Shown piece by piece: positions 2,969 to 51,793 of a stretch of 64,000 nucleotides of DNA (position 1 is its first letter; every line of letters begins with the position of its first letter). This DNA comes from Candidatus Berkelbacteria bacterium CG10_big_fil_rev_8_21_14_0_10_43_13 (GTDB lineage: Bacteria; Patescibacteriota; UBA1384; XYA2-FULL-43-10; 1-14-0-10-43-13). Position numbers and translations under genes: made by a program. Under the pieces are notes generated by a model. The model made no database searches, had not been told where the DNA came from, and was given only the letters and a program-made list of their open reading frames with translations. Location: contig PEZW01000009.1 in NCBI GenBank assembly GCA_002773985.1, forward strand, positions 23,546-87,545. Direction: 5' to 3'.

Positions 2969-3244
2969 CTAATTGCTCGCAAAAGGATTGTCGCGACCGA
3001 CCTGGTCAGATGTTGGAGGCTGGACCGGTAAATCTCCGGCGTTTGTTTTATCAGAAATTAATGACTTGGCTGTCGAAGCCAGATTGGAAACCTCGATAGT
3101 TTGATATTTTTGGTCAGCAGATGTGTCTATTGCTACCTCAGACTGAGCTGAGCTCCAAAACCAAAAGAAACCAGCCACCGTCACAACCAGCAGTAGAGAG
3201 CTACCAATAATTCCAAGCATCCGTGATTTTGTGTTTTTACCCAT
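2969..3244 (-). CDS. Small single-pass membrane protein in the pilus operon (possible PilP-like)
   Basis: ORF with an N-terminal TM helix (LLLVVTVAGFFWFW), co-directional and tightly spaced with pilB and the PilO-like gene. Confidence 0.4.
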   Translation of the reverse strand: MGKNTKSRMLGIIGSSLLLVVTVAGFFWFWSSAQSEVAIDTSADQKYQTIEVSNLASTAKSLISDKTNAGDLPVQPPTSDQVGRDNPFASN

Positions 3245-3271: not shown

Positions 3272-3877
3272 TTATTGTGCCGTTGCAGTGGACATCACAT
3301 CAGCAGACGCACCACCACTGATCGTAGATGTGTCTCCCTGTGTGTATGTTTCCAGTTGAAGAGTCGTGGAGAAGGTGCCGTCATCAGCCGGTGCGATCGT
3401 AGCACTCTTGATAGCAAAGAACTTTAGATTGCTCTCGATCGACTTGACAAAACCGGTCAAACCGGCAAAATCTCCGCTGACAGAGAAAGATACAGAGACG
3501 GCTCCAGTACTGGTACTCTGGGACTGGTCGCTCGTGCCACTGCTATCTGATCCACCGGAAATTTGAAAACTGGGAATGTATGTTTTGTTGGCAGTCGCTA
3601 TCGCTTCCAAAGTCGTGATGATGTCACCGTTGTCCTGATCACTCGGAACCGCCACAAACATCGAATCAACCGTCGAACCAAGACTGTCAAGGGTTGACTT
3701 GGCCGTCTTGAGCGAGTCTAGCTTGGCTTTGACCGCCGTCAGCTCATGATCTACCTGAGCAACATCAGCCTTGTTTTGTTTGTATTGCGGTATGATCCAA
3801 AACCAGCTCAGTAAAAAGGCAACTATCACCAGAAAAACTGCGATAAATCCGGGAGTCGATGATTTCTTCTTTTCCAT
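3272..3877 (-). CDS. PilO-like type IV pilus assembly protein
   Basis: N-terminal TM, coiled-coil segment, S/T-rich C-terminus. Operon position after the PilN-like gene. Confidence 0.5.
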   Translation of the reverse strand: MEKKKSSTPGFIAVFLVIVAFLLSWFWIIPQYKQNKADVAQVDHELTAVKAKLDSLKTAKSTLDSLGSTVDSMFVAVPSDQDNGDIITTLEAIATANKTYIPSFQISGGSDSSGTSDQSQSTSTGAVSVSFSVSGDFAGLTGFVKSIESNLKFFAIKSATIAPADDGTFSTTLQLETYTQGDTSTISGGASADVMSTATAQ

Positions 3878-3878
3878 T

Positions 3879-4571
3879 TTAGATTCCTCCTTCTGTTGCG
3901 CTAACTGAGGCTGTAGAAAGCGCAGTAGTTTTATCCACAGTCGCTGAGATAGAGAAAGTCACCGAGACAACACCTGATTCGACACTCTCGGATTCAGAAT
4001 CGAGTGTCGCTGTGGTAACGACATTTTTTTCATCTATCTTCCAATTTTTCAGTGTCGCAACCTGTTGTGCCGCTGACTTGTAACTGTCAGTCGTGCCGGA
4101 AAAGCTAACTTTTCCTGTGTCATCCACCGATAATGTCGTGACGACAACGTTTTTGTTCACCTGACCATAAAGAAGTGGCAAAAAGTTGTCCATCGAAAAT
4201 CGGCTCTTGGAAGCTGTGCTTAGCTGGTTGACCGCAGACTGAAATTGATTCGCCCTCGTTTCGAGTGCAGCATATGTCGGACTGGAAATCTCGGCGACAG
4301 CATCATCTTTCTGGCTAGTCTTATCTGCAAGATCCTGTGTCGCGCTACTGTTTAGAAACCAAAAAAACACAGTGGCGCTGATCGCTATGATTGCACTGAG
4401 CCAGAGAAGCAATCCGGAGATGCTAAACTCGCCGTGATCCGCCATCTCTGTGAGATAATCGTCACCACTATTTCCGCCACTTGGCCTTGGCGCTGGTGCC
4501 GGAGCTGGAGCAGACGATGGTATAGACGCTGATCCTGCTGCTTGGCTATCTAAAGTTTTTTCGAGATCCAT
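3879..4571 (-). CDS. PilN-like fimbrial assembly membrane protein with Pro/Ala-rich N-terminus
   Basis: TM helix around residues 55-75, then a periplasmic domain. Operon context. Confidence 0.45.
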   Translation of the reverse strand: MDLEKTLDSQAAGSASIPSSAPAPAPAPRPSGGNSGDDYLTEMADHGEFSISGLLLWLSAIIAISATVFFWFLNSSATQDLADKTSQKDDAVAEISSPTYAALETRANQFQSAVNQLSTASKSRFSMDNFLPLLYGQVNKNVVVTTLSVDDTGKVSFSGTTDSYKSAAQQVATLKNWKIDEKNVVTTATLDSESESVESGVVSVTFSISATVDKTTALSTASVSATEGGI

Positions 4572-6282: not shown

Positions 6283-8145
6283 TTATTGCACCTTACAATA
6301 ATAAGTAAGCGAAGTGCCAGAGCTAATACCAGTCCACAACACATAACCATTGAGGTTATCTGCCGCCCCAACATTACTTGGATTGCCCCTCGTTGTATCA
6401 TTTTTACACGCTACACTCGAACCACCAGAGCCAGGAGCAGTAAGGTAGTCATCTTCGACAGAAACAGTTCCACTAAAGGTTCCAAGATCAAGCTTGACCT
6501 GAATAATATCTCCCACTTGCAAAGCATAAGGATTAAAATTATCCACAGGACTAGCACTTTTTCGTTCAACTGGAATAAGGGTTTTCTTTATCGTCACCTT
6601 CGCCGCGGCGTCAGTTTGCTGGATGTAAATCCGCCCACCACCACCGGCAGGCCCTTGGGTGGAGAGATGACTTGCTCCACCGACAGCCTGTATGTTTGTG
6701 TATAAGGAATTTACAACGGGACTATTGTTTTCCTGACCAAGCGTAGATGATGAGTAATGCACTGTACCTACTGCCGCTGCATTTCCAAAGTCATTTCCCG
6801 AGGGATTTCTCACCGCATAACTAGACAAACTCGCTGTTGGATGTAAATTAACAAATGCTTTACTAAATGAAATTATTATGGAACCACCGGATCCACCACC
6901 TGGGGCCGTTTTATAATCGTTAGTTCCGTCACCTCCATTCGCCAGAATAAATGAAGACGAATCCATATAAATGGAATCAGAAAAAAGCATAACTCTGCCA
7001 CCGCCAGGTCCACCGTCCGACACTCTCTTTCCTTCTGTACCACCACCACCAGACCCCCATTCAAAATTTGCGGGTAAACCCGAAAAGGAAGCATCTCCAT
7101 AAGCAACCCCTCCGGCAAGATCCCCGTTTTGACCATGACCGCCATAGCCAGCTCCAGAACCAGAACACCCCCTTGTGCCGCGTGAGCACCCCCATCCATG
7201 CCCTGGACCATATCCGACAGAAGAGTATTGATTATTAATACCACCAGGATAACCCTTGTTGCTTACATCGATCAAACTAGCATTCAGACTGATTGCTTTA
7301 CCCACTACTAGATCAACCTTTTTCCAATGCGCAGCGTTAGAAATATCATTTACTAGAGAAAATGATGGGTTGTTTCCATCTACATCAGAGGTGGTTATCT
7401 GAGTGTGATTTAGGGTGGTATTGTTTAGAGTCAGGCTGGCAAAGTGCCTCTTTGTATCACAATCAGACATTTGATTATAGGCAGCTGTATACAATGAGTT
7501 AAGCATTTTAGGCGTAAAACTAGCCAAGCACTGGACTCCATTGTAATGATAGGTTAGTTGACCTTGCATGATATAGTTTTGGGCAGCAGGGGTATATACA
7601 TACTGGCACTGCAAGTAATAACCCCACAAGCCACCGGCTGAATTCCAGCTTTTTTCGAACGCATAAGTGTTTCCTCCGTAGTTGTAAGTGGCCGGACAAT
7701 TAGCGTTGTCCGCTGGGTGGATCACCTGAGTCAACGGAGTTGACGCCTTGGTATAGTGGCAAACGTTATCATTTTCACTGAAATAACTAAGGTAATACCC
7801 ACCTCCTGGTGCGTATACGCATTCATAATGTGTCCCATCCTTCTGCCAGACACCAACCGTATCAGCATTGATAGTTCCCCCATGAGTTGTAACAGTATAA
7901 TCAGGTCCACACACTGCAGGGAAATATGTGGAGGACCCTGAACCGACGCATGTGTGAGCCGTAGTATTAATCGTCCAGCCAGCCAAGGTGTATGTAGACG
8001 CATTGGCCTTTCGTGGAGACTGTGAGATAATCATCTCCCCTAGTACCACGAAGAGAAGCAGGCATGCCAGAATAGTCACCACTCGAAATCTACGTCTAGA
8101 TCTAAGAACATCTGAAATTGATATTTTTGCCATTATTCCCCTCAC
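6283..8145 (-). CDS. Large membrane-anchored Gly-rich, Cys-containing surface protein
   Basis: 620-aa ORF with an N-terminal TM and long GGxGG-type glycine-rich tracts. First gene of the pilus operon. Confidence 0.55.
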   Translation of the reverse strand: MRGIMAKISISDVLRSRRRFRVVTILACLLLFVVLGEMIISQSPRKANASTYTLAGWTINTTAHTCVGSGSSTYFPAVCGPDYTVTTHGGTINADTVGVWQKDGTHYECVYAPGGGYYLSYFSENDNVCHYTKASTPLTQVIHPADNANCPATYNYGGNTYAFEKSWNSAGGLWGYYLQCQYVYTPAAQNYIMQGQLTYHYNGVQCLASFTPKMLNSLYTAAYNQMSDCDTKRHFASLTLNNTTLNHTQITTSDVDGNNPSFSLVNDISNAAHWKKVDLVVGKAISLNASLIDVSNKGYPGGINNQYSSVGYGPGHGWGCSRGTRGCSGSGAGYGGHGQNGDLAGGVAYGDASFSGLPANFEWGSGGGGTEGKRVSDGGPGGGRVMLFSDSIYMDSSSFILANGGDGTNDYKTAPGGGSGGSIIISFSKAFVNLHPTASLSSYAVRNPSGNDFGNAAAVGTVHYSSSTLGQENNSPVVNSLYTNIQAVGGASHLSTQGPAGGGGRIYIQQTDAAAKVTIKKTLIPVERKSASPVDNFNPYALQVGDIIQVKLDLGTFSGTVSVEDDYLTAPGSGGSSVACKNDTTRGNPSNVGAADNLNGYVLWTGISSGTSLTYYCKVQ

Positions 8146-23421: not shown

Positions 23422-23655
23422 TTATTCTTTGCTCAACCCAAACCGCCAGATGGTTAGAATTAATATCACTACAATCCAGCCAAGGGCGATCCACACATGG
23501 ATTAGATTATCTAAAATTCTACCACCAAGTAGTGAAACCGACCGCATAATCCGAGGTAACGGTGATAACGGCAATATTTGAACGATATTATAGAGCCATT
23601 TCGGCAAGGAATCGATCGGAAAAAACATCATCGGAATAGTGATGGCTGTTGACAT
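23422..23655 (-). pseudogene. ABC-2 type permease C-terminal fragment
   Basis: 77-aa hydrophobic ORF, too short for a permease. Paired with a truncated ABC ATPase immediately upstream. Confidence 0.45.
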
Positions 23656-23876
23656 CCCTTTGTCATGGTGTAACCCAGTACTTTAATACTGCCGGAAGTT
23701 GCCAAGCGCAAACCTTCGATAATTTCTAGTGTTGTTGTCTTGCCGGCACCATTTTCTCCAAGCAAGCCAAAGATTTCTCCCTGTTTGACCTCGAATGAAA
23801 TACCGTTGACCGCAACCAACTCTCCGTATTGTTTGACCAAATTTTTTATCACAATTACGTTTTTCATAATCACCAA
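23628..23876 (-). pseudogene. ABC transporter ATP-binding protein, N-terminal fragment only
   Basis: Walker A GENGAGKTT present, but the ORF stops after about 80 aa. No Q-loop, signature or Walker B. Confidence 0.55.
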
Positions 23877-37271: not shown

Positions 37272-37294
37272 AAAACATTAATCGCAAATCATTA

Positions 37295-37337
37295 AATATA
37301 AAAATATACAGTCTAAAGCTGTATATTTTTATATTTA
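37295..37337 (+). terminator. AT-rich 18-bp perfect hairpin (aaatataaaaatatacag/ctgtatatttttatattt) downstream of the PBP gene
   Basis: Perfect inverted repeat with a 7-nt loop, followed by a T-rich tract. Confidence 0.5.
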
Positions 37338-37398
37338 ATCTATTAACACGAGCTCTCTACACTTGACAGAACAGCACTCGATAGTGTACTATCGTGTT

Positions 37399-47503: not shown

Positions 47504-48622
47504 TTATCCACCCTGCTGTTTAACTTGATGCTTGGAAATATTGGTCAACACTCCGACTGCAGCAAGCAAAACGATCAGCGAGGTTCCGCCATAGCTAATA
47601 AATGGAAGCGGAATTCCAGTCAACGGCAATAGTCCCAACATCGCTGCCGTATTGATGGCCATCTGAGAAAATATCCAGATTGTCACCCCGATCGCCACTA
47701 ATCTAGCAAAGCCATCCGGAGCAGTCTTGGCGATTTTCAAACCGCGCAAGGCGATAAAAACAAAAACCAGGATAATAGCCGCTGCCCGCAATGTTCCCAA
47801 CTCTTCACAAATTATAGCAAAAATCGAGTCTGTATGCGCTTCCGGCAGATAAAGATATTTCTGTTTACTTTGACCAAAACCGAGACCAAGCAAGCCGCCA
47901 GAACCGATCGCTATCAGAGCATTTTGGATATGATAGCCAGTTGTCAGGGAACCTGTTCCTGGGTTTAAAAATGTGGTCAGTCGCTGCATCCGGTATGGCT
48001 CTAACTTGATCATCAACCAAAGTAAGACTCCGCCAAGGCCCACAGCACCAAAAATCTGATTGAGCGGTGCACCGGATGCGACAAATAAACTACCAGCAAT
48101 AATTACATATACGGACAGTGTGCCAAGATCCTTTTGCATAAACATCAAAAGAACAATAATTCCCAGAATACTGATAAAGGGCCAAAACAGTTTTGCTACA
48201 TCCTTGAGATTGTTGCCTTTTTCACTAAACCAACCGGCTAAATAAAAAATAAATGTCAGCTTTGCTAGTTCTGCTGGCTGAAAATTAAAGCTGCCGACAT
48301 TGATCCAACGACCAGCTGAAGTAATGTGAAGAGGCGAGAGAATAACCGGTAGAAGCAACAGCCCAATTGTAATAAAAAACATCGTCCCGGCGTGTTTTTG
48401 CCAATAGTGATAATCGATAGCCTGAACCACAACCCAGCCGACGAGGCCGATCGCCACCATTAAGAGCTGTTTTTTTAGAAAATATTTATCAGTCACACCG
48501 TCTGTCAATTCTAGAGAATAATATTTCGACACCGAGTAGATCATGATAAGACCAAAAACAATCAAGCCAAAAATCGCCACAGACAACCAATAATCTGAAT
48601 GTTGTCGCCGAAAATTAGTCAT
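47504..48622 (-). CDS. ftsW: SEDS-family peptidoglycan polymerase FtsW/RodA
   Basis: 10-TM SEDS protein between murD and murG. Confidence 0.85.
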   Translation of the reverse strand: MTNFRRQHSDYWLSVAIFGLIVFGLIMIYSVSKYYSLELTDGVTDKYFLKKQLLMVAIGLVGWVVVQAIDYHYWQKHAGTMFFITIGLLLLPVILSPLHITSAGRWINVGSFNFQPAELAKLTFIFYLAGWFSEKGNNLKDVAKLFWPFISILGIIVLLMFMQKDLGTLSVYVIIAGSLFVASGAPLNQIFGAVGLGGVLLWLMIKLEPYRMQRLTTFLNPGTGSLTTGYHIQNALIAIGSGGLLGLGFGQSKQKYLYLPEAHTDSIFAIICEELGTLRAAAIILVFVFIALRGLKIAKTAPDGFARLVAIGVTIWIFSQMAINTAAMLGLLPLTGIPLPFISYGGTSLIVLLAAVGVLTNISKHQVKQQGG

Positions 48623-50075
48623 TGTTTTGCCTTGATTTTAGAACCGCTTCCTTAAATTTCTCGCCGCGATCTTTGTAGTTTTTAAACATATCGAAACTGG
48701 CGCAAGCCGGAGAAAAGATAATCACGTCACCTCGTCGTGCTTCTCGAAGCGCTTGTTGGACTATCTTTTCTAGTGTCTCATGACCAACAATTATTTCGCC
48801 AGAATAACTTGCTATCTCCAGTGATTCTCTAATTTTCGATCCTTCGGCCCCAATCAACACAACAGTCTTCACATTTGTTCCCGCGATTGCCTCGGCCAAC
48901 TTACTAAAATCAGCTCCCTTCGAACTGCCACCAAGTATCAGAATTTTATTCTCGTCAAATGAGTTGATTGCCGCCATTGTCGGATCAGGATTGGTCGCAA
49001 ATGAGTCATTGATAAATTTGATTCCGCCAATCTCTCGGACTAGTTCTAGGCGATGTGGCAGACCGACAAAACGCTTGACTGCCTCACGAGTTATTTCAAT
49101 TGGAATGTTTAATATATCGGCAACAAGCGTCGCCGCAGCAATATTTTCCAAATTGTGTTTGCCGACCAATTTCAAATCACTAATTTCGCAAATCTCTATT
49201 TGACGATTTTGCGGATCGAGAACAACCTTACTCATACCGTTTTCATCGATGACAACACAATCAACAAATTTGTTGTCGCGGGCAAAATATTTAATATTCC
49301 CGCGGATTTTTTTCAAAGTGCCTGGACCAAATGTCGAAGAGTGATTTAAAACAGCATAATCTTCTTTCCCCTGCCACATAAGAATATTATTCTTGGCCGC
49401 TCGGTATTCGGCCTCGTCTTTGTGGTAATCAAGATGATCGACACCAAGATTGGTCATGACAGCGATATGCGGACTTTTGTCTAAATCCGCCAATTGAAAA
49501 TTTGATAGCTCAAGTATGACAACATCACACTTTTGTAGCTGTGGAATCAAGTTGATCGCCGGCTTACCGATATTGCCCGCCAGATAGGTTTTGGGATTTG
49601 GGATTTGGGATTTGGGATTTGATTTGACATTAGAAATTAGAAATTTGGCATTGTTCTCTAATATTGAAAATATTAGAGAACTTGTAGTTCCTTTTCCTTT
49701 GGTTCCGGTGACACCGATAATAGGACAGGGACAAAGATCGAAGAAAAGCTTCATCTGAGACGAAATAGCAACTCCCTGAGATTTGGCTAGCATCAAAGCA
49801 GGATCACGGAAGTAGATTGCTGGTGAGCGAAAAACAATGTCGTATTTTTCTAAATCATCCAGGTATCCGTCACCAAACACTTTGTCGATCCCGTCGTCAA
49901 CTATGATATTGGAAACCAAGTCTTTGAGTTCGCCCTCAGCTTTGTCAACAATCTTTTCAGCCGAATCTCGGTCATGAACAGCTAAACTGCCGACTCGGTT
50001 TTTCAGAAACTCCAAAAGAGCGACACCTTCAATGCCGAGTCCCAAAATAGCAACTCTTTTTCCCTCAAGCTTCAT
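48615..50075 (-). CDS. murD: UDP-N-acetylmuramoylalanine--D-glutamate ligase, with a repeat-derived in-frame insertion after the P-loop
   Basis: GVTGTKGKGTTSS P-loop, then about 25 extra residues (FLISNVKSNPKSQIPNPK) before LAGNIGKP. Confidence 0.9.
   Translation of the reverse strand: MKLEGKRVAILGLGIEGVALLEFLKNRVGSLAVHDRDSAEKIVDKAEGELKDLVSNIIVDDGIDKVFGDGYLDDLEKYDIVFRSPAIYFRDPALMLAKSQGVAISSQMKLFFDLCPCPIIGVTGTKGKGTTSSLIFSILENNAKFLISNVKSNPKSQIPNPKTYLAGNIGKPAINLIPQLQKCDVVILELSNFQLADLDKSPHIAVMTNLGVDHLDYHKDEAEYRAAKNNILMWQGKEDYAVLNHSSTFGPGTLKKIRGNIKYFARDNKFVDCVVIDENGMSKVVLDPQNRQIEICEISDLKLVGKHNLENIAAATLVADILNIPIEITREAVKRFVGLPHRLELVREIGGIKFINDSFATNPDPTMAAINSFDENKILILGGSSKGADFSKLAEAIAGTNVKTVVLIGAEGSKIRESLEIASYSGEIIVGHETLEKIVQQALREARRGDVIIFSPACASFDMFKNYKDRGEKFKEAVLKSRQNND
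49589..49682. repeat. Intragenic repeat block: (TTTGGGA)x4 tandem + ATTAGAAATTAGAAAT + perfect 29-bp palindrome GTTCTCTAATATTGAAAATATTAGAGAAC
   Basis: Seen directly inside the murD coding sequence. Stays in frame. Confidence 0.75.
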
Positions 50076-50113
50076 AGATTTATTTTATACCAATCAAAGC
50101 TCAAAGTAACTAT

Positions 50114-50142
50114 TGACAATTTTTATCAAATAGTGTAGTATA
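50114..50142 (+). promoter_or_regulatory. Near-consensus sigma70 promoter (TTGACA - 17 nt - TAGTAT), plus strand
   Basis: ttgacaatttttatcaaatagtgtagtat. Transcription would run into the GC-rich structured segment. Confidence 0.5.
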
Positions 50143-50149
50143 GTACGCA

Positions 50150-50660
50150 ATCTGAGTTTCGAAGAAACTATTAGTTATTTGTAACTGACAAATGATTAGA
50201 GCTTCTTCGGAAGGATGTGGCCATGCTCATCAAAAGCGGGCTCACAGAGTAACCCGCCGCTGGGGGTCGTAACCAGCGGGGCTGTGGTTGAGCAGCCAAA
50301 GAGTCGGTTCCGGGTGGACCGATCTCACTCAACTAGAGGAGGAAGGGCTTGAAAAAGCTCTTCGACTTCTACTAGCTACATAGAGACCCGAGCGGATTAA
50401 TTCGCATGTCTCATCCCCTTGCCGGTCAGGGTGACCGGTAAATCGGAGCGCGAGTTCATATTGGACACCCGAAAAGCCCGAGACGACATCTCGAGCCGTC
50501 GTGGATACCATAGTACCTCCGCCCTAAAACCGGCCAACCTCCTCCCCATGCACATTTTACTGCGTCTACGAAACCCTGCGGTTTAGCGAGACAATGTTCT
50601 ATGATGCTACGGCGAGGGGTTGGCTAACCCCTCAGCCTTTAATTTATTAAAGATTGAGGC
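50150..50660 (+). ncRNA. Candidate structured ncRNA of unknown class (GC-rich, hairpin-dense, no credible ORF)
   Basis: About 55% GC against about 40% background. Many stable hairpins (cgctgg..ccagcg, cggttccgggtggaccg, ggggttggctaacccc). Promoter upstream, terminator downstream. No RNase P, tmRNA or SRP signatures found by eye. Confidence 0.35.
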
Positions 50661-50667
50661 GAATCAA

Positions 50668-50706
50668 AAAATCCCCACTAGTTTGTGAGGATTTTTTGAT
50701 TTTTGA
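50668..50706. terminator. Bidirectional rho-independent terminator (aaaaaatccccac-tagttt-gtgaggatttttt)
   Basis: Serves the mraY 3' end on the minus strand and the candidate ncRNA on the plus strand. Confidence 0.65.
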
Positions 50707-50752
50707 TGTTAAAAATATGAATCGCAATATTTTCTTTAGAAATTAGAAATTT

Positions 50753-51793
50753 TCAGGACAGTGTTCCCCGCCCGATCAGTGCCAGAGCCATACCGGCGAC
50801 GGTGAAAACGGCAGAGATAATCCAGAAACGCATTGTAATCTTGTACTCCGGCCAACCAATCGCCTCGAAATGATGATGAAGCGGACTAGAGAGAAAAACT
50901 TTCTTCTTCCTGATTTTTTTCGATAAAAATTGAATGATAAAACTCAATCCTTCAATACTAAAAACGGCGGTGATAACAAAAAAGGCAATGACTGAGTTTG
51001 TCAAAAAGGCGACGACACCAAGCGTCATACCGAGTGACATGCTGCCAGTATCGCCCATAAAGAAGCGCGCCGGCGGAATATTGAACCAGAGAAACGAAAA
51101 AAGAGCTCCGACGACAGTAGCACAAAAAACTGCTAAGCCGATCCGACCCTGAGTCAGTGCAATAATGGCGTATGCACTGTAGCAAAGAGCGAAGATACCA
51201 CCAGCCAGACCATCGAGCCCATCAGTTTCGTTCGAGGCAAAAGCGATCCAGACCAGTACTGCGATGAAAAGTGGAATATACCAAGCACCGATTGTAAAAT
51301 CTCCAACCGCCGGAATATGAATGATGTTCCAACCAAGTTTCGAATAAAACCACCAAGCACCAACCGCGGCGATCACTGCATAGACAGGAAATTTTTGTTT
51401 GATACTCAAGCCACCACCCTTTTCGCCGATACCACGAACATTCCAGAGGTCATCGATTGCCCCGACAATTCCTGTCGCTACCAGACAAAAAAGTGGCAGC
51501 CAGGTCGCCGACCGAGATAAATTGAAAAGAATAGTCAAAATCGCCACCGTTATCCAGATCAATAATCCTCCCATCGTCGGCGTACCATCCTTTTTCTGGT
51601 GGAGAGCTGAGTAAATCGGAGCATCAGCGCTGGCCCGAATGCGTTTGGCAATCTTGTTTTTGTACAAAAAACGAGTCAGGATCGGCGTCAGGACGATCGC
51701 TACCAAAAAAGCCACCAGTGCAAACCAACTCATCCTCATCAAATCATCCGGCTGGATGTAAAAAGCCTTTACAATACTCATTCTGTCTCCCAT
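50753..51793 (-). CDS. mraY: Phospho-N-acetylmuramoyl-pentapeptide transferase
   Basis: 10-TM protein with FMGDTGSMSLG and DGLDGLAGG motifs. Confidence 0.9.
   Translation of the reverse strand: MGDRMSIVKAFYIQPDDLMRMSWFALVAFLVAIVLTPILTRFLYKNKIAKRIRASADAPIYSALHQKKDGTPTMGGLLIWITVAILTILFNLSRSATWLPLFCLVATGIVGAIDDLWNVRGIGEKGGGLSIKQKFPVYAVIAAVGAWWFYSKLGWNIIHIPAVGDFTIGAWYIPLFIAVLVWIAFASNETDGLDGLAGGIFALCYSAYAIIALTQGRIGLAVFCATVVGALFSFLWFNIPPARFFMGDTGSMSLGMTLGVVAFLTNSVIAFFVITAVFSIEGLSFIIQFLSKKIRKKKVFLSSPLHHHFEAIGWPEYKITMRFWIISAVFTVAGMALALIGRGTLS

Follow-up and report, generated by a model that had tools for sequence, protein, structure and literature searches.

The question raised by this locus is what separates mraY from murD, two genes that are normally adjacent, and whether the separating DNA is a gene for an undescribed large structured RNA with its own promoter and terminator, as a sequence-only reading of the locus had proposed. 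In the window, by which we mean the whole 64,000-nucleotide stretch of DNA that was analysed, mraY (50753-51793, minus strand, a 346-aa ORF with PF00953) and murD (48615-50075, minus strand, a 486-aa ORF whose homologues carry Pfam Mur ligase domains) both border the gap as intact, full-length genes. The murD product is UDP-N-acetylmuramoylalanine--D-glutamate ligase, and its matches are Berkelbacteria-like (Patescibacteria). The gap measures 677 bp (50076-50752), in good agreement with the roughly 680 bp originally described, while most relatives have 6-50 bp at this place; among 80 GTDB relatives (species representatives found via MraY, with an identity of 74% or less), the two genes are mostly neighbours, and the gap is 6-44 bp in those whose murD comes directly after mraY. 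The closest relatives, which were drawn from a protein collection and one metagenome pattern scan, show a different picture. Their gaps reach 764 bp in L082 (mraY identity 88% at the nucleotide and 97% at the amino acid level), 608-612 bp in L084/L092 (82% nt), 496 bp in L083 (80% nt), and about 907 bp in L132 (75% nt). On the ERZ1426827 contig with P0124 (MraY 81%), no gene is called in the mraY-murD gap of 646 bp, which might contain an element similar to that of the window. The contigs of two close relatives break at this slot, that of L130 ending 22 nt after mraY and that of L085 starting inside mraY, which would fit either strain-level heterogeneity of the payload or assembly breaks induced by hairpins.

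The gap contains a predicted sigma-70 promoter on the plus strand, opposite to the cluster, at 50106-50141, which consists of the block GTAACTATTGACA with a -35 hexamer at 50113-50118, a 17-nt spacer, and the -10 hexamer TAGTAT at 50136-50141. This arrangement, TTGACA-17-TAGTAT at 50113-50141, matches the consensus at 10 of 12 positions, and its predicted transcription start is at about 50148-50149; the near-consensus promoter of the sequence-only reading is therefore present, one base away from the 50114-50142 given there. Taken alone, such a promoter is not above chance, as 2 sites were found against 2.5 expected in shuffled sequence. Both hexamers and the 17-nt spacing nevertheless recur at the same place in L082, L084/L092, and L132, so that the sequence has both the hexamers 17 +/- 1 nt apart and the position kept among relatives that are expected of a sigma-70 promoter. 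The hexamers belong to a block beside murD that is common to the window, L082, L083, L084/L092, and L132 and reads ATTTTATAC(C/T)A - 13/14 nt - GTAAC(C/T)ATTGACA - 17 nt - TAnnAT. When the window was compared with L082, the hexamers were identical, but only 7 of the 17 spacer bases matched (read from the alignment), and third-codon identity was 0.69 in mraY and 0.52 in murD; kept hexamers in such a diverged setting suggest selection on the promoter in the window lineage. In L083, which has no payload behind the promoter, the -10 hexamer has decayed to CGATAT, whereas that of the window is intact, which favours continued selection for transcription in the window lineage. Judged by these alignments, the promoter hexamers look selected. 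The metagenome scan for the promoter block added one relative (L092), and the other 41 matches were contigs of an unrelated organism group (L086-L129 except L092, L095, and L108; about 50% GC), which are mutually homologous and carry back-to-back promoters of the form TTTTATACCATAAT...GTAACCATTGACA-17-TAATAT; their resemblance to the block of the window is taken to be convergent.

The plus-strand promoter stands back to back with a putative promoter of murD, and its -35 hexamer is separated by 38 nt from the start codon of murD and by about 20 nt from the murD -10. The latter is represented by TGGTATAAAAT at 50082-50092 on the minus strand, in which TAAAAT ends 6 nt before the murD ATG. This motif, the TAAAAT, and their spacing to the ATG (6-8 nt) are kept in L082, L083, L084, L085, L132, and L134, with equivalents at 50076-50092 in the window, 3980-4000 in L082, 495-520 in L085, and 1318-1336 in L134. 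No Shine-Dalgarno site precedes the murD ATG in the window or in the clade, and this pattern suggests that TGGTATAAAAT is the -10 of a murD promoter and that murD has a leaderless mRNA and its own promoter inside the dcw cluster. A search of 49500-51300 yielded no promoter-like site for the minus strand. We prefer the plus strand as the transcribed strand of the element, because promoter-like sites in 49500-51300 are confined to it, because, read on the minus strand, the element comes after the mraY terminator, and because the payload genes of the relatives are on the plus strand.

At its other end, the plus-strand unit is closed by an intrinsic terminator at 50661-50706, whose 17-nt arms (50662-50678 and 50685-50701) are 94% complementary and are followed by TTTTTTGATTTTTG. 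The GC-containing stem-loop followed by a U tract that characterises intrinsic terminators is found here, and since A and T runs border the stem on both sides, it should act in both directions, as the end of the plus-strand unit and as that of mraY. The claim of a strong bidirectional terminator was thus correct. Directly before it, a penultimate hairpin at 50630-50659 (plus strand) keeps its structure in the window, L082, L092, and L132 through compensatory changes; for the whole 3' module formed by this hairpin and the terminator, 12 of 29 pairs show such changes across the same four sequences. Within the element, this 3' module (50630-50706) is the only part that has homologues, and it shows covariation. 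In L085 and L134, two genomes lacking the unit, mraY likewise ends at a terminator of similar form. The promoter and the terminator can no longer be called the RNA's own, for both belong to a unit shared with relatives, where they express small proteins.

In three of these relatives the place between promoter block and 3' module is taken by an ORF. L082 has an ORF of 97 aa at 3588-3881 (minus strand), preceded by the promoter, a 5' UTR, and GAGG-7 nt-ATG; the ORF of L092 at 7579-7887 (plus strand) encodes 102 aa and shares with that of L082 the 5' UTR, the first codons, and the last codons (..GCCTGA), and the ORF of L132 at 3459-3719 (minus strand) encodes 86 aa and starts with AAAGGAG-7 nt-GTG. 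The 5' UTRs of L082 and L092 are 83% identical, and the 3' UTR is also common to both. GC content at the three codon positions was 0.59/0.39/0.79 in L082, 0.59/0.43/0.76 in L092, and 0.62/0.51/0.70 in L132, which amounts to a strong period-3 GC signal and a payload GC3 of 0.70-0.79, compared with 0.40-0.55 in the genes of the host. By these measures of their sequence, the payload ORFs of the relatives are real coding sequences with a composition unlike that of the host. Their products matched no family significantly in Pfam, PHROGs, or NCBIfam, and the ORFs of L082, L092, and L132 have no detectable similarity to one another. L084 equals L092 except for one G missing from a G run (L084 at about 1881, L092 at about 7731), which splits the 102-codon ORF; an error in assembling the homopolymer or a variation between strains is the probable cause. 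Besides these payloads, L083 and L132 carry a coiled-coil-like ORF directly after mraY on the dcw strand (3573-3839, plus strand, 88 aa, and 2980-3210, plus strand, 76 aa, respectively); the two are homologous (tblastx E 4e-11) and are absent from the window, L082, and L092. Another sequence just downstream of mraY, the motif CCTGCCCTGAGCGAAG(T/C)CGAA(T/C)GGG, occurs in a hairpin-like context in L082 (about 3335-3370) and L085 (382-410) and is absent from the window.

The unit is not present throughout the clade. L085, L131, L133, L134, and L135 have gaps of 152, 95, 50, 185, and 44 bp, respectively, with a terminator followed by the murD promoter or simply a short gap. As L134 is the sister of L132 (mraY 79% nt, 91% aa) and yet lacks the unit that L132 has, the unit was gained or lost within the clade. 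These five genomes also bear on the view that the locus acts in cis, either by divergent transcription itself or by keeping the mraY terminator and the murD promoter apart or insulated from each other, with the payload as free stuffer. The closeness of the -35 hexamer to the murD ATG and to its -10 would suit such a role, as would the fact that nothing but the promoter block and the 3' module is kept across lineages, the bodies between them being at or near random similarity (z 0.1-2.0). However, the five genomes express murD without the unit, and the payload ORFs of the relatives have been kept open, with Shine-Dalgarno sites and the codon-position GC signature, which means that the payload is no mere stuffer there. 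We therefore regard a role in cis as improbable.

The counterpart of these ORFs in the window is of another kind. It has the same block (GTAACYATTGACA-17-TAnnAT), orientation, position, and two-hairpin terminator module as the unit of the relatives. Aligned with L082, its promoter region scored z 7.2 and its 3' 190 nt z 8.8, and an ordinary intergenic region nearby was 77% identical (z 7.2), whereas the body at 50150-50512 was barely above random (z 2.6). A body that cannot be aligned while its flanks can has either been exchanged for other sequence or changed no more slowly than neutral sites. The body at 50215-50627 (plus strand) has a GC content of 0.55, about 10 predicted hairpins, and no period-3 signal. 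GC in the stretch is 0.54-0.56 against 0.33-0.45 in the flanks, and the body has the highest value among the 20 intergenic gaps in the window; because the coding payloads of the relatives share the high GC, it is not specific evidence for RNA structure. The relatives' payload shows no excess of folding and has an open frame with a start codon, a Shine-Dalgarno site, and a GC3 of 0.70-0.79; the window has none of these coding features and folds with a z of -3.2. At the positions of the GAGG and CATG of L082/L084, the window reads TTAG and TGTA. The longest ORF in the gap has 60 aa, as the sequence-only reading had said in finding no longer frame of coding character; stops occur in all six frames, with at least 6 in each, and GC by codon position in the body is flat at 0.53-0.59 in every frame. 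Thus, the features of a small-protein gene, namely a start codon with its Shine-Dalgarno site, an open frame 86-102 codons long, and a GC3 far above GC2, were not found in the window. A weak local period-3 GC signal, shifting in phase and reaching an amplitude of 0.25, is nevertheless no weaker than that of the L132 ORF. Two short ORFs are predicted near the 5' end, and neither is conserved. The first (50192-50272, plus strand, 26 codons, MIRASSEGCGHAHQKRAHRVTRRWGS) has no Shine-Dalgarno site, and the second (50223-50252, plus strand, 9 codons, MLIKSGLTE) lies past the 5' hairpin, 7 nt after GGAAGGA, and is the sole ORF in the element at canonical Shine-Dalgarno spacing.

Folding strength was assessed against dinucleotide shuffles. 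The stretch 50150-50706 gave a z of -7.3 on the plus and -8.3 on the minus strand, and much of this comes from the 5' hairpin, the penultimate hairpin, and the terminator, with 50510-50660 giving a z of -4.5. The 5' hairpin at 50158-50211 (plus strand), formed by the inverted repeats I7 and I18, is AT-rich, has 21 pairs, and is predicted with a pairing probability of 0.97 (z -4.4). We considered an origin of this hairpin by tandem duplication of the promoter block (repeat D1) and rejected it, as the alignment p of 0.037 is too weak. The GC-rich stretch packed with hairpins was described accurately in the sequence-only reading, whose named hairpins lie at 50257-63/50273-79, 50304-10/50316-22, and 50614-50632; a further hairpin, GAAGGGCUU-GAAA-AAGCUCUUC, is predicted at 50342-50363, and a domain of about 94 nt at 50532-50625. 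The body itself (50215-50510) had a z of -3.2 on the plus and -3.4 on the minus strand, an excess that is equal on both strands, and three interior 200-nt windows of the element gave -3.8, -2.4, and -1.6. For comparison, 200-nt windows tiled over the 64 kb had a mean z of -0.58 (sd 1.36), with 6% at -3 or lower, mostly tRNAs and terminators, and the coding payloads of the relatives, folded as RNA, gave z values of 0.1, 0.6, and 1.2, that is, no folding excess. The structural excess of the body over the genome background is real but moderate. The body folds better than its shuffles, but with the terminator module left out of account the excess is no more than moderate, which weakens the earlier proposal of a structured RNA. 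The strongest folding z in the window (-6.05) belongs to a perfect 22-pair AT-rich hairpin at 37290-37340, which looks like a bidirectional terminator near a gene end.

These properties have to be weighed against a transcribed relic, that is, a small protein gene that has decayed or been replaced while its promoter and terminator are still in place, either owing to a recent loss or because murD and mraY make use of them, and whose RNA has no function. The body is similar in length to those of the relatives (about 320 nt against 275-290) and lies at the same location, the Shine-Dalgarno and ATG positions are mutated relative to L082/L084, the local period-3 GC is as strong as in the real ORF of L132, and the alignment of the body with L082 is marginally above random, all of which speak for this reading; the failure to find a homologue of the body anywhere searched fits as well. 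The genome also keeps remnants elsewhere, as shown by two short ORFs at 23422-23876 (minus strand) inside a 1.3-kb stretch without a long ORF, one an N-terminal ATPase piece of 82 aa with GENGAGKTT and the other a membrane piece of 77 aa, which resemble ABC transporter fragments and are probably a gene remnant. On the other hand, decay does not readily account for a body with a z of -3.2 and a 21-pair 5' hairpin when coding payloads have z values of 0.1 to 1.2, nor for hexamers that are perfectly kept beside a diverged spacer, nor for a GC content that stays at 0.55 when the neutral sites of the genome are richer in AT, and each frame contains at least 6 stops and is without similarity to a protein in the six-frame search. 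We consider a relic somewhat unlikely taken by itself, and almost as likely as an RNA gene.

Known RNA families were sought with Rfam 15 at gathering scores over the whole window and, with permissive filters and E values of up to 10, over 50000-50800 on both strands. The former search found only six tRNAs, and the latter only weak terminator look-alikes (Phe_leader, Yfr10, and microRNA families). ARAGORN found 7 tRNAs and no tmRNA in the window. Bacterial RNase P RNA (RF00010/RF00011; P4 core GGAAAGUCCGG ... ACAGAAnCCGGCUUA) had no covariance match in the window or, at E 10, in 50000-50800; neither SRP RNA nor 6S RNA had one at E up to 10 in 50000-50800, and the same holds for OLE, ROOL, GOLLD, HEARO, and raiA. 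Group I and II introns had no Rfam match, and the element is intergenic. The sequence-only reading had seen no convincing RNase P, tmRNA, or SRP motif, and Rfam 15 and ARAGORN agree with it and extend the result to 6S RNA, introns, and the large ncRNAs. Patescibacteria often have atypical RNAs, and the size of the element and its GC-rich hairpin density resemble housekeeping RNAs of AT-rich genomes, so we considered whether the covariance models had missed a strongly diverged RNA of a known family (RNase P, tmRNA, SRP, 6S, an OLE/ROOL/GOLLD-like RNA, or a piece of an intron). This is very improbable, not only because the searches at E 10 gave terminator look-alikes alone and the loci of the relatives had no Rfam matches at all, but also because a housekeeping RNA would be expected in L082, and the 9.5 kb of the L082 dcw region that were examined hold nothing alignable.

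Homologues of the element were sought more widely. A concatenated six-frame translation had no match at E up to 10 among 5.8 billion proteins (with shared 5-residue words as pre-filter), the ORFs of the gap had no Pfam match, and the idea that the body is homologous to the payload proteins of the relatives was dropped, as tblastn and tblastx stayed at noise level. Neither blastn nor nhmmer found a homologue of the body in the 80 GTDB relatives. In all, 50150-50627 had no homologue in any collection searched, including the closest relative found, L082, so any function would be at most species-specific. The metagenome scan and the genome scan used one query each, and a JGI contig (L001) that is identical to the window comes from the same sample, so the body is known from one sequence. 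The sequence-only reading had taken absence from related genomes as an argument against its proposal, and the body is indeed absent from between mraY and murD even in L082 (mraY 88% nt).

An origin by capture was also considered, in which the element would be foreign DNA taken from some mobile element or GC-rich donor and would act as DNA or through its minus strand. The composition of the element is foreign to the host, the unit is present in L132 and absent from its sister L134 (mraY 79% nt), and folding is equal on both strands, all of which speak for this origin. But the element lacks terminal inverted repeats and clear target duplications, occurs once in the 64-kb window, adjoins no recombinase, its neighbours being mraY and murD, and has no minus-strand promoter, with the mraY terminator upstream of it on that strand. 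Blastn against phages and plasmids gave no match, and three exact 20-22-mers were absent from viral contigs. Capture of this kind has a slim chance, slightly below that of a role in cis. It is possible that a foreign structured RNA was captured, and no donor was found in the phage, plasmid, and viral collections.

The reading that we favour, tentatively and at somewhat less than even confidence, is that the body is a lineage-specific (orphan) non-coding RNA gene. The proposal of an undescribed large ncRNA holds insofar as the body is non-coding, framed by promoter and terminator, and outside known families; it does not hold as to conservation, or as to parts peculiar to this RNA, since these are shared with the unit of the relatives. 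That the folding excess is equal on both strands and that the payloads of the slot turn over count against an RNA gene. The unit of promoter block, payload, and 3' module is common to a small clade of Patescibacteria, and in the relatives the payload is a small, fast-evolving, GC3-rich protein gene. In the window the payload has lost its Shine-Dalgarno site, start codon, and ORF and consists of about 480 nt of GC-rich, hairpin-dense, non-coding sequence. On the favoured reading, selection has kept the promoter hexamers. The predicted promoter, back to back with that of murD and pointing away from murD, would drive a plus-strand RNA of about 555 nt (about 50148-50704), which would fold into a protective hairpin at its 5' end, some ten hairpins inside, and a double hairpin at its 3' end, ending at the two-hairpin bidirectional terminator shared with mraY. 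This RNA would act, if at all, in trans as a stable structured RNA and not by pairing with its neighbours; antisense action on the start regions of murD and mraY was rejected as a candidate, as their duplex energies ranked 12th and 47th of 55 genes. The element is a real and sharply bounded non-coding insert in a variable dcw slot, and a legitimate but unproven single-genome ncRNA candidate.

A broader and doubtful idea, to which we give a low probability, is that the mraY-murD slot is a fixed expression socket, in which the promoter, the 5' end, and the two-hairpin terminator are kept and the payload is swapped or diversifies no more slowly than neutral sequence would, giving unrelated GC-rich small-protein genes elsewhere and a new structured ncRNA in the window, with no recognisable recombinase. 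As a single sequence without homologues, the RNA candidate bears on no open question as yet. Should it prove functional, an uncultivated bacterium with a reduced genome would have, among its clustered genes for cell division and the cell wall, a structured RNA of about 550 nt that is peculiar to one species, and the locus would exemplify a small-protein gene that became, or was replaced by, an RNA gene under the same promoter. A slot with a conserved promoter and terminator and a GC-rich payload that cannot be aligned between lineages may merit a study of its own and is more intriguing than the RNA candidate.

Structured ncRNA candidates have been sought in GC-rich intergenic regions of AT-rich bacterial genomes by the GC-IGR approach, which accepts them only if their homologues covary (PMC8632094). 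The element of the window is like these candidates in being a long high-GC gap with no ORF, with predicted hairpins, and with a promoter and a terminator, and unlike them in being a singleton without a homologue (PMC8632094). With OLE, ROOL, GOLLD, HEARO, raiA, RNase P, tmRNA, SRP, and 6S RNA it shares a length of hundreds of nucleotides, many hairpins, and a stand-alone gene; it differs from the large and housekeeping ncRNAs of Rfam in that it matches none at E = 10, occurs in one genome only, and occupies a place where relatives have a protein gene. Its terminator shows no notable difference from ordinary bidirectional intrinsic terminators and, like those of convergent units, has a GC-cored stem between an A run and a T run that serves both strands. 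Although the slot has no integrase beside it, holds one payload, and shows no attC-like site by eye, it resembles integron cassettes, in pattern only, in that a conserved promoter and conserved flanks frame payloads that are unrelated between lineages.
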